From positions 1-29,757 of the IMG/VR virus record IMGVR_UViG_2534681675_000023: a stretch of 29,757 nt of DNA; one strand, given 5' to 3'. Position numbers and translations under genes: made by a program. The notes beneath the pieces are model-generated. The model saw only the letters and a list, made by a program, of their open reading frames with translations, searched no databases and was not told where the DNA came from. Shown piece by piece: positions 10,333-13,716 of the stretch (its first letter is position 1; every line of letters starts with the position of its first letter). This stretch comes from a virus (Duplodnaviria > Heunggongvirae > Uroviricota > Caudoviricetes).

Positions 10333-10796
10333 CGAGATTAAAGAGCATTAATACATATGTGAATTGACATTTCTGTGGCACAGGGCTAGAACTATTCTCA
10401 TTGTCAGCGTTGTGCCAGAGTCTGATGTTTGTTGTACATTTGGACGAATAGACGGCGTTGTTAACTTTAAAAATAACACAGGAACACTTTGAGAAAGTGA
10501 ACAGGCGTATTTATTTTTTGCTGATGAAGGAGAGTAACTTTAATTTGGGTAATTAGATTGATAATAGGCCAGACGAAAATAACATTCTGGCACACTTTTG
10601 GTCGCTACAGTCATTAGTTAATTTTAAGTGATAAATTTTTATCCATAAGTTAACACTAGTGTGTCATCTAGCGAAACCGAATCGCTTTAATCCATAACTT
10701 AAAGTTGAATCAGTGGGGTAGCAGTAGGTATGCCGGAACTGATAAACTGTGCAGAAGGCTAAACATTCATTCACTCGTGAGATAGTAGCATAAATT

Positions 10797-11141
10797 ATGC
10801 AAAGAATTATTCCTGATAAAAATTGGTGGGAAAAAGAGCGTATTAATCGTAAAGCATCATCAAAATGCCCATATGCTAGTTCATACAGATGTCCTCGGTA
10901 CTATCAGAGTGTAGTTTTGCTCTCAAGCATCAATATGATAGCTGGTATGGCAACTAGGAAAGAAAAAGAGTTGGGCGAATTTGGGGAAAGAACTAGTTTC
11001 TCATATTTATGTGATGAAGAAGTCCCAACAGTTACTACAAAAGAATATGGCGGCCTTGCATCAGTTAGTAATTTTTGCCCAGAAATATCATTTAGATATT
11101 TACACTATTACGCCGATTATATGTGTAAATATGTTGATTAG
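10797..11141 (+). CDS. Hypothetical Cys-rich protein (island operon 1, gene 1)
   Basis: 114-aa ORF in strongly AT-rich DNA (long ORFs are improbable by chance at this composition); five Cys including C-x7-C. Confidence 0.5.
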   Translation: MQRIIPDKNWWEKERINRKASSKCPYASSYRCPRYYQSVVLLSSINMIAGMATRKEKELGEFGERTSFSYLCDEEVPTVTTKEYGGLASVSNFCPEISFRYLHYYADYMCKYVD

Positions 11142-11210
11142 ATAGATCAGGATACTGGCAGGCGTAGTGCGGAAAAAGATAATTTAGAAAATGATTGGAA
11201 ATATACATGG

Positions 11211-11663
11211 ATGTCAGTCAATCCTAAATTTTATTTAGATTGCGATGTTTTTGAAAGTGTCAAAAACTTCAATGAAGAATTGGCTAGTGATTACTTAAAG
11301 AGATTGCATCCAAATATCATTCAGCAAATAGATAGAATGAATAATTGCTTGGATAATAATGACCCTGCGGGTGCACTGCACGCAGCCTCTAATATTCTAG
11401 AAACTATGGCGAAGGAAATCACTCAAAACCCGAATGTGGCAAATGAGTCATTGGGTGGTTTTTTTAAACAGTTCGAAAAAATGTCAAAATTACCTAAGAA
11501 TCTTATTGATATTGTTAAAGATATTTATGATTTACGCAACAAACTACCTACTGCTGGACACGGAAGCTTGAACAGGCCTGAATTAACTATGGTAGAAGCT
11601 ATAACTATTGCGGCAATGACAAAGGCGATTTTAGAAATTGAATATCGAAGCAAAGCCATCTAA
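11211..11663 (+). CDS. Hypothetical alpha-helical protein (island operon 1, gene 2); possible HEPN-like R-x(n)-H motif
   Basis: 150-aa ORF 69 nt downstream of previous ORF, AT-rich codon usage; motif DIYDLRNKLPTAGHG. Confidence 0.55.
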   Translation: MSVNPKFYLDCDVFESVKNFNEELASDYLKRLHPNIIQQIDRMNNCLDNNDPAGALHAASNILETMAKEITQNPNVANESLGGFFKQFEKMSKLPKNLIDIVKDIYDLRNKLPTAGHGSLNRPELTMVEAITIAAMTKAILEIEYRSKAI

Positions 11664-12162
11664 CAAACATAAATTATGTGGTTCAAATTCCCGCTATACT
11701 TCTGTGTTATTGCCGCCAGCGTCTACTTATCGCTGTGAGTTCAACGGGGCGATGATGCGTTAGAGATCTCTGAATCGATTGAAGTCTAAGGTTGTCAGGG
11801 CTGTAACAGTAGCCCTGTGTCATGAAAGGATTGCATATTAATTAACGAAGAACAGACCAATAGCATTGATAGTTGTTTTCAAAAATAGACCAATAACAAA
11901 CACGACTGGCCATCTCATCGATTTTCGACAGTATGCAGAAATGGGCGGTATCCACACGCAGTACCAGCTTGCTAAGATAAACGAAAAGGAGACTTTAACC
12001 AGTCAGTGGCTGCATGCTGATGGTGATCCGCTATGGGCCGTAGATGTTGTTTGATGTACGCAGAAAGAGACGACGAAGGGCACTATGCCGAAAACTAAAT
12101 CGGTTTTAGAGATTAACCGCGCTGGTGAGCTGGAGTGATTGACTTTTAGAACGCCAGAAAGC

Positions 12163-12190
12163 AAAAACCTCACAATCGAGTGAGGTTTTG
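12163..12190. terminator. Bidirectional rho-independent terminator between convergent island operons
   Basis: AAACCTCAC-AATCGA-GTGAGGTTT stem-loop flanked by A-run on one side and T-run on the other. Confidence 0.6.
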
Positions 12191-12201
12191 TTAAGGGCTT
12201 A

Positions 12202-12828
12202 CTATTTTTTGGCAATTAGTGCATGCATCGCCATTTCATGACCTTTTCTGCGAAGTTTTTTCACACGGGGCTTGAGCCTAGTGAAAGAACTTGGGCTAAT
12301 TGTCGACTCAGCTTCAACTATATCATTGCGGGGAGCACCCGTTTTAGCATCTTCATAGCGGATAAGTATTTTAAACGTGCCCTCATCAACTCCGACACCT
12401 TGCAAGTGATGAAGTTTAGATGAAACAGCACCGATTAAATAATCATGAATTCCTTGCAGGCCCGTTTTACCGATTGGTGAATAGGTATGCAACATATTTG
12501 CACCTACAGGAAGGAACTGGCGAAAGTCAGGAACATGCATCTTGTTAACTTCAACAGAAGTGTATGCTTTCATGTCAAAAGAAACTCCAGGTTTCCGTGC
12601 ATTGACTTCTAGCCATTGAGGCAAATCGAGAATATATTTGCTCTCAGCAGTTACTTCCAGTTTCTTCCTAGACGATAATGTCACGTCCATTACCTGAGCC
12701 ATATCAGCCATAGAAAGCTCAGCGGCCTTCCGGTTGATGGCTTGTACCCGCTCGCTCACGTTAGGTCCGAATGCATCGAACAACGAAATTTCAGCAGCTG
12801 GTTTAATGGCTTCAGTTTTAACAGACAT
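12202..12828 (-). CDS. Hypothetical protein, downstream partner of zeta-like kinase
   Basis: About 208 aa from ATG at 12828 (MSVKTEAIK…) with AAGGAG 6 nt upstream; starts about 25 nt after the kinase stop; no motif recognised by eye. Confidence 0.65.
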   Translation of the reverse strand: MSVKTEAIKPAAEISLFDAFGPNVSERVQAINRKAAELSMADMAQVMDVTLSSRKKLEVTAESKYILDLPQWLEVNARKPGVSFDMKAYTSVEVNKMHVPDFRQFLPVGANMLHTYSPIGKTGLQGIHDYLIGAVSSKLHHLQGVGVDEGTFKILIRYEDAKTGAPRNDIVEAESTISPSSFTRLKPRVKKLRRKGHEMAMHALIAKK

Positions 12829-12853
12829 ATACACTCCTTAGATAGGACACTTA

Positions 12854-13552
12854 TTATACACCTAAATGCGCTAGATCGCTAACGTCTGAATATGGGCAGC
12901 TATGGGAGGTAGTCCAGTTTTCAAGGGTCACGTTAGGAGTATAGTCGACCACGAACTGACCATCATTTTCAGGATCTTCCCGTCGATGATAAACATTGAG
13001 TGTAAATAGGCCTGCATATTTCGCGAGCATATGTTCAATGGTCTCTCTGCTCTTGAAAAAGTTCGCTTTAAGAACCTCTAACGGAACCTTACGAGAGCGG
13101 GCTTGGGCAAAAACCCACGCGTAAGCCGGATCAAAATAGACGTAATTCAGTGCTACCTGATAACCAGCCTTCAGGGCCAGATCAAAGTTTCTCTCCGCAA
13201 TACCTATACTGGAGAAAGTAGAGTCCATAACAATGGGATAGCCTTCAGATAGCGCTTTTTTGTAGATAAAATCGACCATTCTGGAGGCAGGTCTCTGATA
13301 GTCCACAGAGTTCTCTTCATTGTAGTAGGGGAACCACCAGCGAAAATCATCAGCATCAATTCGAACAATGTTTGTGATGCCATGTTGTTCTAAAAGACGA
13401 TTTAAGAGCTCGGTTTTACCTGCAGCAGGCGAACCAGCCATAAACAGGACGTGCTTGGCATTGGCATTTTTGTTTGCTGTTACGTAACTATAAACGTAAG
13501 GGCGAATTGCCTCACCAAACTCAGGCAGTATGGTTTCAAGTTCTTTTTTCAT
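12854..13552 (-). CDS. Zeta-toxin-family P-loop kinase (PezT/zeta-like)
   Basis: 232-aa ORF; Walker A GSPAAGKTE followed by IVRIDADDFRWWFP, collinear with zeta/PezT GQPGSGKT…VIDNDTFKQQHP; further collinear blocks (…KAGYQVALNYV…, …LNVYHRRED…) as recalled from PezT. Confidence 0.8.
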   Translation of the reverse strand: MKKELETILPEFGEAIRPYVYSYVTANKNANAKHVLFMAGSPAAGKTELLNRLLEQHGITNIVRIDADDFRWWFPYYNEENSVDYQRPASRMVDFIYKKALSEGYPIVMDSTFSSIGIAERNFDLALKAGYQVALNYVYFDPAYAWVFAQARSRKVPLEVLKANFFKSRETIEHMLAKYAGLFTLNVYHRREDPENDGQFVVDYTPNVTLENWTTSHSCPYSDVSDLAHLGV

Positions 13553-13593
13553 CGGTAAATCATGCCGTGGTAGTTTTAGTTTTATTTAACAAT

Positions 13594-13620
13594 ATCATAA
13601 ACGTTTAAAGATGGTTACAA
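13594..13620 (-). promoter_or_regulatory. Putative promoter of the kinase operon
   Basis: On the minus strand TTGTAA (-35), 15-16 nt spacer, TATGAT (-10), about 40 nt upstream of the kinase ATG; hexamers only, unverified. Confidence 0.3.
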
Positions 13621-13716
13621 ATTAGCTAGATTTGTGAGCGCTTTAACCTCTAAAACCCTCTGGAACCCAATACCGCTTTTCTGGCTGTCTTTTCAATACG
13701 GCATCCAGCGCATCAC

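Follow-up and report, generated by a model that had tools for sequence, protein, structure and literature searches.

A low-GC cargo island of a Qin-like lambdoid prophage carries a zeta-family kinase with an orphan partner protein and a probable HEPN pseudogene

What is encoded by the low-GC DNA found between the replication and nin-like modules of a lambdoid prophage, and can its genes be linked to any described conflict system? This question was raised by a prediction made from the sequence of IMG/VR record IMGVR_UViG_2534681675_000023 (positions 1 to 29,757, the whole stretch analysed here and hereafter referred to as the window). The predicted site is borne out by the RefSeq annotation of an identical prophage, which gives the gene order Cro/CI, YdaT, HTH replication protein, DUF977, island, hok/sok, DUF968, RusA and Q. 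At 40.2% GC, positions 10333-13700 indeed make up the most GC-poor segment of 3.4 kb in the window (rank 2 among 528 sliding positions), as compared with 47.0% for the whole window and 51% for the flanks (7000-8321 and 15473-17500). However, placing the end of the island at 13700 proved too short. The DUF977 gene ends at 10332 and prophage-shared sequence resumes only at about 14070-14082, and the island (10333-14070) thus takes in a further 77-aa ORF (13717-13950, minus strand) before the hok/sok and nin-like backbone continues. Over this full extent the GC content is 40.9% against the 51% of the flanks, the drop being uneven along the island (36% at 10410-11901, about 44% at 12202-14070). 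The whole island is present in 8 of 5426 complete E. coli genomes, 4083 of which contain the adjoining DUF977 gene. It is pieced together from two mobile cargo cassettes that are unrelated to each other and share the prophage slot, denoted here as cassette A (plus strand, 10410-11901) and cassette B (minus strand, 12080-13650). The island-specific 77-aa ORF is located upstream of the minus-strand operon and is annotated by PGAP in the identical prophage. It has no Pfam match, and is absent beside cassette B in other contexts, being seen only in the E. coli island.

A comparison with related prophages reveals conserved flanks with differing cargo between DUF977 and DUF968, in agreement with a variable hotspot. 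Alternative occupants of this interval are QueH together with an NgoMIV-type type II restriction-modification system, or an Sll1717-family P-loop ATPase with hokD and rem. In one strain the prophage is truncated directly after DUF977, and some other prophages carry nothing in the DUF977-to-hok/sok slot. Given that other prophages have restriction-modification, the Sll1717-family ATPase or nothing at this site, it may fairly be read as a hotspot for defence or toxin-antitoxin genes. Another prophage defence hotspot is the relBE-hokD region of K-12 Qin. As in the P2 and P4 prophage defence hotspots (PMC9122126; bioRxiv 10.64898/2026.02.27.708500), the slot keeps its place in a conserved prophage backbone while its cargo is exchanged, and no description of the DUF977-to-hok/sok slot of Qin/Rac-like prophages as a hotspot was found in the literature examined. 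Defence pseudogenes are reported to be rare in the P2 and P4 hotspots (bioRxiv 10.64898/2026.02.27.708500), in contrast to the island studied here, where one cargo gene is a probable pseudogene.

The original prediction considered the island to be defence or toxin-antitoxin cargo that matches no described system. Its accessory nature and its location in a variable slot, occupied by restriction-modification or an ATPase elsewhere, are confirmed, but no defence model matches the island. PADLOC-DB 2.0 models gave only weak and partial matches to the island proteins (best E-values 0.004-0.06), with none else at E ≤ 0.1. Furthermore, neither cassette is present in any of 50,697 phage records. With both searches negative, it is only the neighbourhood that points to a defence role for the cassettes.

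Cassette A consists of a HEPN gene and the non-coding DNA on either side of it. About 10 further E. coli genomes contain this same block (10410-11901) at 95.8% identity in their P2-like prophage hotspot, where cassette B is lacking. Within the block, an 81-bp relic (11750-11830) corresponds, at 91.5%, to the 3' end of a short gene for a tyrosine recombinase plus the spacer following it; its counterpart is found in about 600 E. coli genomes, there adjoining a DUF4145 gene. The plus strand had been interpreted as a two-gene operon encoding two proteins of no assignable family. This did not hold: the two ORFs (10797-11141 and 11211-11663) share a frame and are split by a single TAG, and together constitute one 288-codon gene (10797-11663) that encodes a four-cysteine N-domain and a C-terminal HEPN/Abi_C domain. 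The TAG (codon 115, 11139-11141) is located within a near-invariant YVDEID motif, and is present in each lambdoid-slot copy examined (L001, L015 and L017, the last a metagenome contig). A second damaging change is found in the window copy, where codon 63 (10983-10985) is GGG (Gly) at a position that is Trp in the family and invariant in 29 aligned homologues; the L015 copy keeps TGG. Every relative examined outside the lambdoid-slot allele contains a single ORF of about 288 aa (40 clusters found), and the intact relatives sit in the P2 prophage defence hotspot and other prophage cargo sites. No intact copy of the TAG allele was found. One database entry, P0057, appeared to be such a copy and was rejected as a gene-calling artefact that reads the TAG as Gln. 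The TAG alleles differ by 2 synonymous and 3 non-synonymous changes, a sample too small to prove relaxed selection. On account of the TAG and W63G, the plus-strand gene is most likely dead in this prophage, the TAG having presumably inactivated cassette A in this prophage lineage, where it would now be drifting.

The C-terminal domain adopts the HEPN four-helix fold, and the Pfam Abi_C model (PF14355) scores 23.2 bits for the 150-aa ORF and 20.7 bits for the full-length protein against a gathering cutoff of 24. In the HEPN motif LRNKLPTAGHG, R247 and H255 show conservation of 90% or more and G256 does not vary, but the R-x7-H spacing exceeds the canonical R-x4-6-H range by one residue. The intact cassette A protein is a candidate single-protein HEPN nuclease, presumed to use the four-cysteine N-domain as sensor and HEPN as effector. 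Comparable abortive-infection proteins that act as single HEPN proteins are HepS of the Salmonella prophage Gifsy-1 (PDB 9oik; PMC13043305) and those of AbiJ / Abi_C type. These differ from the cassette A protein in the spacing of the Arg and His and in the lack of any sequence similarity outside the HEPN core, while the window copy is in addition broken. The AbiJ model (PADLOC PDLC02347) gave no full-length match and left the N-terminal domain unmatched, with weak partial matches only (E 0.012 over positions 220-262 of 281; P0087, E 0.0049 over 150-203). No match to the four-cysteine N-domain (about 150 residues) was found in the PDB or BFVD.

Could the two plus-strand ORFs nevertheless form a working two-protein system, with the 114-aa product as a split sensor and the 150-aa product as HEPN nuclease? 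PGAP annotates both as proteins in all 8 genomes, and the TAG allele is common enough to form a cluster of 141 database sequences. The residual 150-aa ORF (11211-11663, residues 139-288 of the intact protein) contains only the HEPN domain, complete with Arg and His, and could still be made from its internal ATG. However, the shared frame with one stop inside a near-invariant motif, and the lack of any split relative outside the near-identical TAG allele, make a functional split highly improbable. The 114-aa piece is missing both the final strands of the N-domain and its fourth invariant Cys (C149); in the window copy the invariant Trp63 is gone as well. The ATG of the 150-aa ORF is found inside the last N-domain strand in a structure model, no ribosome-binding site is evident ahead of 11211, and the only apparently intact database entry is the P0057 artefact.

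On the minus strand, the predicted two-gene operon is intact, with a 232-aa kinase (13552-12854) followed by a 208-aa partner (12828-12202). Together with the promoter region and terminator, these genes form cassette B, which moves as one unit. A bidirectional terminator had been placed where the two predicted operons converge, and a hairpin with T-runs on both strands is indeed found at 12164-12189 (10 pairs, z about −4.5; minus-strand dG −15.8 kcal/mol, plus-strand dG −20 kcal/mol). It lies 13 nt past the stop of the minus-strand operon, which it ends, but is located about 500 nt past the plus-strand gene, and may also act on that strand. A hairpin and T-run follow the partner stop in all 5 of the other loci examined, with differing stem sequences. 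Nucleotide identity with the Pectobacterium and Enterobacter loci is 79-82% over 12283-13649, and similarity extends beyond the terminator. Upstream of the kinase, the element GTCACAAA..TAATTTGTAACC is conserved, as is a -10-like box.

In this clade, every intact kinase gene examined is followed after 24-26 nt by a partner gene, a count that leaves out the more distant kinase P0056. This linkage holds across six unrelated settings: the lambdoid prophage described here; a Pectobacterium int-alpA-ash-primase satellite-like island, beside an integrase and a RelE/MqsA-like pair; Enterobacter plasmids, beside RepL, ParA/ParG and a TacA-type module; a 166-kb plasmid, beside DUF4041, ImmA/IrrE and HNH genes; the Pantoea chromosome; and a metagenome contig. 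Truncated kinase genes also occur (P0051-P0055 and L021). The kinase clade is limited to Enterobacterales and close relatives.

The kinase was found to be a member of the zeta/PezT family of P-loop kinases, as had been proposed, with the Pfam Zeta_toxin model (PF06414) matching residues 28-181 well above threshold (E 7e-29; 101.1 bits versus a cutoff of 22.3). The best solved relatives are PezT (PDB code 2p5t, E 1.4e-10) and zeta (1gvn, E 3e-4), and a profile search with the kinase identified PezT (1.5e-12), the polynucleotide kinase Pnkp1 (E 7e-7) and ng_zeta1 (E 0.008). The catalytic motifs are intact. The Walker A sequence GSPAAGKT aligns with the PezT and zeta P-loops, with G44, K45 and T46 invariant in 19 homologues, and the Asp of RIDADDFR, equally invariant in these, aligns with PezT IDGDSFR (D66) and zeta IDNDTFK (D67). 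In contrast, the GTXR motif responsible for binding UNAG (UDP-N-acetylglucosamine), located at G117-T121 of zeta and G116-T120 of PezT (PMC6362051), is absent: DSTFSS is found where zeta has EGTGRT and PezT EGTLRT. The replacement DSTF(S/A)S is itself conserved, reading DGTFA in the most distant clade member; D109 and T111 do not vary and S110 hardly does, while the Arg is absent throughout the clade (19 homologues). In view of the lost GTXR motif and the match to Pnkp1, a nucleic-acid substrate is possible.

The partner protein is translated from ATG 12828, which is preceded by AAGGAG 7 nt ahead; an alternative start at GTG 12834 was rejected, as this strong Shine-Dalgarno sequence precedes the ATG instead. 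In line with the prediction that the kinase has an unrecognised partner, no match was found in Pfam, NCBIfam, PADLOC or PHROGs, nor to antitoxin models or PDB chains, and there is no likeness to epsilon or PezA. A search of 1.84 billion representative proteins turned up only 35 relatives. A conserved 48-residue N-module containing SLFDAFGP...AAELSM opens the sequence; the middle is hypervariable, the C-terminal region semi-conserved and the tail basic. The N-module diverges together with the kinase, being 79-88% identical where the kinase is 84-88% identical, and 46-48% identical where the kinase is 59-66% identical. Beyond residue 48, identity is only 17-51%, and the Pantoea partner shares only the N-module with the 208-aa protein. 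In one locus (L026), an intact kinase gene is followed by a partner of just 62 aa that comprises nothing but the N-module. An AF2 model (pLDDT 51, pTM 0.17) suggests that the partner is largely disordered. Near-identical E. coli alleles differ at two positions only, both non-synonymous and both in the middle of the partner (codons 80 and 92), with none in the kinase.

Cassette B shares with epsilon/zeta and PezAT the P-loop kinase family, including Walker A and the substrate-deprotonating Asp, and a two-gene operon carried by plasmids, islands and prophages. It differs in that the kinase comes first, with the partner 25 nt downstream; neither epsilon nor a PezA antitoxin was found directly upstream of the kinase, where there is a 165-nt promoter region followed by the unrelated 77-aa ORF. 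The partner itself, a mostly disordered 208-aa orphan, is dissimilar to epsilon and PezA, and the DSTF(S/A)S replacement sets the kinase apart from the UNAG-phosphorylating zeta toxins (epsilon/zeta, PezAT and EzeT). Zeta-family precedents for unrelated antitoxins, and for altered substrates or a lack of GTXR, are ng_epsilon1/ng_zeta1, EzeT and Mycobacterium tuberculosis Rv0366c-Rv0367c (PMC6362051, PMC10532202). In these cases, however, the antitoxin is encoded upstream or fused N-terminally, none has a SLFDAFGP...AAELSM partner, and kinase similarity is weak. AvrRxo1-Arc1 comprises a zeta-like kinase with a binding partner encoded downstream, and phosphorylates NAD rather than UNAG, AvrRxo1 being a much larger secreted effector. 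In layout, it would be the nearest analogy to cassette B. AvrRxo1 is homologous to PezT (PMC10532202), and gave no sequence match to the kinase in PDB searches.

Taking both cassettes together, we favour, with a probability of roughly 55%, a joint reading in which cassette B is a type II toxin-antitoxin-like or Abi module, akin to epsilon/zeta but of inverted gene order, and cassette A an inactivated candidate HEPN nuclease gene. Kinase and partner probably constitute a toxin-antitoxin or abortive-infection pair with a new antitoxin, for which the strict linkage of the two genes, the co-divergence of N-module and kinase and the disorder of the partner provide indirect support. The N-module of about 48 residues would bind and silence the kinase, and the largely disordered partner would presumably be short-lived, such that the kinase is freed when supply of the partner stops, either because the element is lost or because an infecting phage shuts off the host. 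Alternatively, release might occur when something binds the hypervariable middle of the partner. The freed, toxic kinase would phosphorylate an essential nucleotide-type metabolite, probably not bound in the way that classical zeta toxins bind UNAG, and the ensuing growth arrest would stabilise the element or abort the infection. Counted against a toxin-antitoxin reading are that the partner is unlike any antitoxin, is encoded after the kinase and, at 208 aa, is large for an antitoxin.

An anti-phage role could also be the dedicated function of cassette B, with the partner middle binding a phage protein and thereby freeing or activating the kinase, so that the infected cell is killed or arrested. 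This overlaps in parts with the explanation favoured above, and differs in trigger and purpose. The far faster divergence of the partner middle compared with the kinase and N-module is suggestive of such sensing, as is the confinement of both non-synonymous allele differences to that region (codons 80 and 92, none in the kinase), but a disordered linker may diverge fast neutrally and two substitutions constitute no test. Direct sensing by an abortive-infection protein of a prophage has a precedent in HepS (PMC13043305), and the neighbourhood also fits: the slot elsewhere holds restriction-modification and an ATPase, with a satellite-like island integrase and plasmid DUF4041, ImmA and HNH genes as neighbours in other settings. 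However, plasmid maintenance contexts (RepL, ParA/ParG) fit addiction equally well, and no defence model is matched. We consider a dedicated sensor-effector possible, if doubtful. It is less likely still that cassette B is non-toxic, and encodes a kinase acting on small molecules or nucleic acids to the benefit of the lysogen or element, for example by modifying a metabolite, an antibiotic or RNA ends, with the partner as substrate, adaptor or regulator. While the GTXR motif that defines the classical toxic activity is missing in the whole clade, the partner is unlike known antitoxins, and AAA_33 and polynucleotide-kinase-type models also match, Zeta_toxin is by far the best model (101 bits versus 47 for AAA_33). 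Patchy distribution on mobile elements, tight linkage and toxin-antitoxin or defence neighbours are furthermore typical of conflict systems, as opposed to housekeeping or metabolic morons, and truncated kinase genes are as expected of decaying toxins. The most far-reaching version of our reading is possible, if likewise doubtful: that cassette B represents an undescribed Abi system (a non-UNAG zeta-family kinase, an antitoxin module of about 48 residues and a hypervariable phage-sensing centre), and that the intact 288-aa protein is a new single-protein HEPN defence with a four-cysteine sensor.

For cassette A, the favoured reading means that one cargo gene moved between the P2 hotspot and a lambdoid prophage and then decayed. 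PGAP annotates two "hypothetical proteins" where one broken gene exists, and a read-through artefact of the broken HEPN gene has entered at least one large protein database. The DUF977-to-hok/sok slot of the very common Qin/Rac-like prophages is a place to mine for further cargo. To our knowledge, almost all that is known of zeta/PezT kinases comes from canonical systems, which encode the antitoxin ahead of the toxin and have UNAG as substrate. A 2023 review of PezAT noted other zeta homologues without experimental study, and its survey covered only genes upstream of the toxin (PMC10532202). Cassette B, in which the putative toxin precedes a new partner and the substrate pocket is changed, offers a compact test case that could widen the known range of zeta kinase targets, and could demonstrate control by a short conserved peptide module.

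The stretch 10333-13700 has a GC content of 40.2%, against 47.0% for the whole window and 51% for each flank, which makes it the 3.4-kb segment with the lowest GC in the window (rank 2 of 528 sliding positions), in line with the original prediction of an island markedly poorer in GC than its surroundings. The drop is uneven, with 36% for the left block (10410-11901) and approximately 44% for the right part. The island had been taken to end at 13700, which is too short: DNA common to other prophages starts again only at approximately 14070-14082. The island therefore measures about 3.7 kb and includes a 77-aa ORF (13717-13950, minus strand), which shares its strand with the kinase operon and lies upstream of it. 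This ORF has no Pfam match and no informative family in PADLOC, NCBIfam or PHROGs; it is restricted to the 8 island-bearing genomes and is absent from the cassette in other species. Only 8 of 5426 complete E. coli genomes contain the whole island, and it had no match among phage records; the adjoining DUF977 gene occurs in 4083 E. coli genomes. In related prophages the slot is occupied by QueH and a NgoMIV-type restriction-modification system, or by a Sll1717-family P-loop ATPase with hokD and rem, and one related prophage terminates at the slot. These alternative occupants support the suspected cargo hotspot, and cargo genuinely varies at the position between DUF977 and hok/sok.

The window belongs to a Qin-type lambdoid prophage of E. 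coli and is 99.96-99.97% identical to a prophage in strain MFDS1022581, where the integration site adjoins rspB and ynfC. The gene order there runs int, xis, exo, dicB, repressor, Cro/CI, YdaT, HTH replication protein, DUF977, island, hok/sok, DUF968, RusA, Q and lysis genes, so the proposed placement of the island between the replication and nin-like modules is correct. DicF and sok were both matched in the window using Rfam. A 1310-bp IS3-family insertion (8322-9631), absent from the otherwise identical prophage in NZ_CP169399, contains OrfB (8702-9589) and an ALIL frameshift pseudoknot (8657-8773). Its junction shows a 3-bp overlap, as expected from a 3-bp target duplication; this duplication and the length of the element fit IS629/IS1203. 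Because the insertion disrupts the HTH replication-protein gene in its 3' portion, the window copy of the prophage is probably replication-defective. After the lysis genes, an IS21-family element with istA and istB lies at approximately 23356-25320 (mapped from 27024-28988 of L001, the identical prophage); both genes are annotated as frameshifted in that prophage, which is further evidence of prophage decay. At the hok/sok locus (14409-14808; sok match 14409-14583, Rfam), the hokD stop codon, TAA in strain EC261, is mutated to TTA, extending Hok from 51 to 76 aa, and PGAP flags hokD as a pseudogene in the identical prophage. Two more low-GC stretches (38-39% GC), at 17501-18500 and 25501-26500, map by coordinates on L001 to a 237-aa hypothetical protein encoded past Q and to the surroundings of the Bor and DUF1398 genes; these may be additional moron-type cargo.

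The two-gene operon proposed for the plus strand proved to be one gene split by a single TAG. The ORFs at 10797-11141 and 11211-11663 lie in a common frame, their sole separator being the TAG at 11139-11141. The surrounding block, cassette A (10410-11901), shows 95.8% identity to DNA in P2-like prophages of approximately 10 other E. coli genomes, where the same 867 nt form a single 288-aa ORF with Glu at codon 115 (P2-hotspot allele WP_016569949). Those copies are flanked by a DinI-like gene and a portal gene, and from these flanking P2 genes we infer that the interval corresponds to the variable region that Rousset et al. reported for P2 (PMC9122126). A database search yielded 40 clusters of relatives from Serratia, Salmonella, Hafnia, Pectobacterium, Vibrio, Shewanella and Pseudomonas, all single ORFs of 286-302 aa except for shorter partial or truncated entries. 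The TAG at codon 115 sits within a near-invariant YVDEID motif. The window copy additionally carries Gly63 where 29/29 aligned homologues have Trp, a residue retained by the TAG-bearing copy at locus L015. Among the TAG alleles we counted 2 synonymous and 3 non-synonymous differences, compatible with relaxed constraint in a sample too small for proof. P0057, a public protein cluster of 141 member sequences with Gln115, was considered as an intact allele and rejected as a gene-caller read-through: its contig (L017 619-1485) has the TAG. The caller apparently used a code reading TAG as Gln, with the result that a pseudogene is listed as an intact protein in the database. The plus-strand "operon" is a pseudogenised single HEPN gene and in the window is most likely dead.

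The AF2 model of the intact protein (pLDDT 85) has an N-terminal alpha/beta domain of approximately 150 residues followed by a C-terminal helical domain, with a Pfam Abi_C score marginally below threshold. The catalytic-type Arg and His (R247 and H255) are conserved at R-x7-H spacing. Four cysteines (C24, C32, C94 and C149) are invariant in the N-terminal domain, which has no match in PDB or BFVD and no informative family in PADLOC, NCBIfam or PHROGs. Some Pseudomonas relatives have exchanged the HEPN domain for a different C-terminal region, and this swap suggests that the N-terminal domain senses or regulates, with the C-terminal domain serving as an effector that can be exchanged. HepS of Gifsy-1 is a single-protein HEPN abortive-infection protein (PMC13043305), and by likeness to such proteins a defence role is a good candidate function for the intact gene. 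In a Salmonella prophage, intact copies adjoin DUF4145 and tail-fibre genes. In the P2-like prophage of E. coli 120899 (L002 9506-12514), a 217-aa protein with RNCIVHANG (R-x4-H, HEPN-like) is encoded on the strand opposite the intact 288-aa gene, and the same hotspot holds an AAA ATPase and HNH endonuclease pair resembling Septu; strain O25b:H4 (L016) has a P-loop NTPase-fold protein as the neighbour in place of these.

Cassette A and the minus-strand cassette B (12080-13650) were each found without the other, which led us to reject any joint working of the two. Their GC contents are unlike (36% vs 44%), and between them, at 11750-11830, lies an 81-bp relic that is 91.5% identical to the 3' end of a short (approximately 200 aa) tyrosine-recombinase gene and the spacer following it; that recombinase gene adjoins a DUF4145 gene in approximately 600 E. 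coli genomes. The relic is also present in the P2-hotspot copies of cassette A and looks like a recombination scar carried along with it. The island is a mosaic of successive insertions rather than a coordinated convergent pair.

Cassette B encodes a 232-aa product (13552-12854, minus strand) that clearly belongs to the zeta/PezT kinase family, scoring 101 bits against Pfam Zeta_toxin and matching PezT with E 1.4e-10 as a single sequence and E 1.5e-12 with a profile. The expectation of a zeta-toxin-family kinase next to an unrecognised partner is supported. The Walker A motif GSPAAGKT is invariant across 19 homologues, as is the Asp aligned with zeta D67 and PezT D66. In classical zeta toxins the GTXR motif binds UDP-N-acetylglucosamine (UNAG; PMC6362051); at this position nearly the whole clade has DSTF(S/A)S, and the most distant member DGTFA. 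With GTXR lost, the substrate may be other than UNAG, but the kinase looks active. The partner gene (12202-12828, minus strand) starts at ATG 12828, 25 nt past the kinase stop and preceded by AAGGAG, and encodes 208 aa in agreement with the PGAP call. A stable hairpin with T-runs (12164-12189, z about -4.5) lies 13 nt beyond the partner stop. Equivalent terminators of differing stem sequence end the cassette at the five other loci examined, which supports this half of the bidirectional terminator originally proposed; that it also serves the plus-strand gene, at a distance of 500 nt, is less certain. The 15-nt inverted repeats (12102-12116 and 13643-13657; 93% complementary) bracketing the E. 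coli cassette are not kept around it in other species and are thus probably due to chance.

The partner has no match in Pfam, NCBIfam, PADLOC, PHROGs or PDB, profile searches included. A word-indexed search found approximately 20 clusters, all from Enterobacterales, and an exhaustive HMM search only 35 relatives among 1.84 billion representatives. Matches to giant Ig-repeat or transposase-like proteins (P0108, P0112, P0123 and P0125) were discarded as summed weak repeats or chimeric sequences. In the alignment, a nearly invariant N-terminal module, MSVKTEAIKPAAEISLFDAFGPNVSEQVQAINQRAAELSMDDMA, is followed by a hypervariable, indel-bearing middle of approximately 75 residues, then by a C-terminal segment of moderate conservation and a basic tail that terminates in KK; AF2 with 19 homologues (pLDDT 51, pTM 0.17) predicts little fixed structure. 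In two short proteins, P0124 (L027 765-1070) and P0120, the N-terminal module of the partner, SL(F/Y)DxFGPxxS...AAxxSMxDM, occurs twice in tandem; P0124 lies in a phage-like context with an adjacent NT5C nucleotidase and no recognisable zeta kinase. The N-terminal module may be a portable peptide motif beyond cassette B.

In every context examined, an intact kinase gene from the clade is followed after 24-26 nt by a partner gene. These contexts comprise the E. coli prophage of the window; a Pectobacterium island that encodes an integrase, AlpA, Ash and a primase and has a RelE/MqsA-like pair next to the cassette; Enterobacter plasmids, with RepL, ParA/ParG and a TacA-type module in the vicinity; a 166-kb plasmid, with DUF4041, ImmA/IrrE and HNH genes close by; a site on the Pantoea chromosome; and a metagenome contig. 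The pair is rare, being present in 1 of 72,556 plasmids and in none of 50,697 phage records. Partner residues 1-48 diverge in step with the kinase (79-88% identity vs 84-88% for the kinase; 46-48% vs 59-66%), and beyond residue 48 identity falls to 17-51%. The 261-aa Pantoea partner has only the N-terminal module in common. On one contig the intact kinase gene is followed by a 62-aa protein consisting of this module only, which may be a truncated partner. A 54-aa ORF after the distant kinase P0056 was dismissed as a partner, having no convincing similarity to the module. Near-identical E. coli alleles show 0 changes in the kinase and 2 in the partner, each of them non-synonymous and located in the variable middle.

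Read most economically, cassette B would be an epsilon/zeta-like type II toxin-antitoxin system. Like epsilon/zeta, it pairs a zeta kinase with a putative antitoxin, yet the gene order is inverted and the antitoxin would be new. The N-terminal module would bind and silence the kinase, and loss of the partner would free it and arrest the cell, an arrest that would serve either element maintenance or abortive infection. The sequences establish the family of the kinase domain, its catalytic motifs, the GTXR loss, the linkage of the two genes, the co-divergence of kinase and N-terminal module, the signals of an operon and the presence on mobile elements, whereas the toxicity, its neutralisation, the instability of the partner, the substrate and the trigger we infer. 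A more far-reaching reading is possible, by which the variable middle of the partner would sense phage directly. A kinase paired with an adaptor and devoid of toxicity we consider unlikely.

Neither cassette matches a PADLOC model, and neither was found described in literature on zeta toxins, anti-phage systems, hotspots and kinases or under six RefSeq accessions. According to a 2023 review of PezAT, zeta homologues of the non-canonical kind have received hardly any study, and its own survey covered only upstream neighbours. Taken as a whole, the original prediction is confirmed in part: it is supported for the low-GC cargo hotspot and the intact kinase operon and falls for the plus-strand operon, a broken single HEPN gene. 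The island's chief interest lies in its minus-strand operon, an intact and so far uncharacterised version of the zeta-kinase toxin-antitoxin theme that lends itself readily to experiment.
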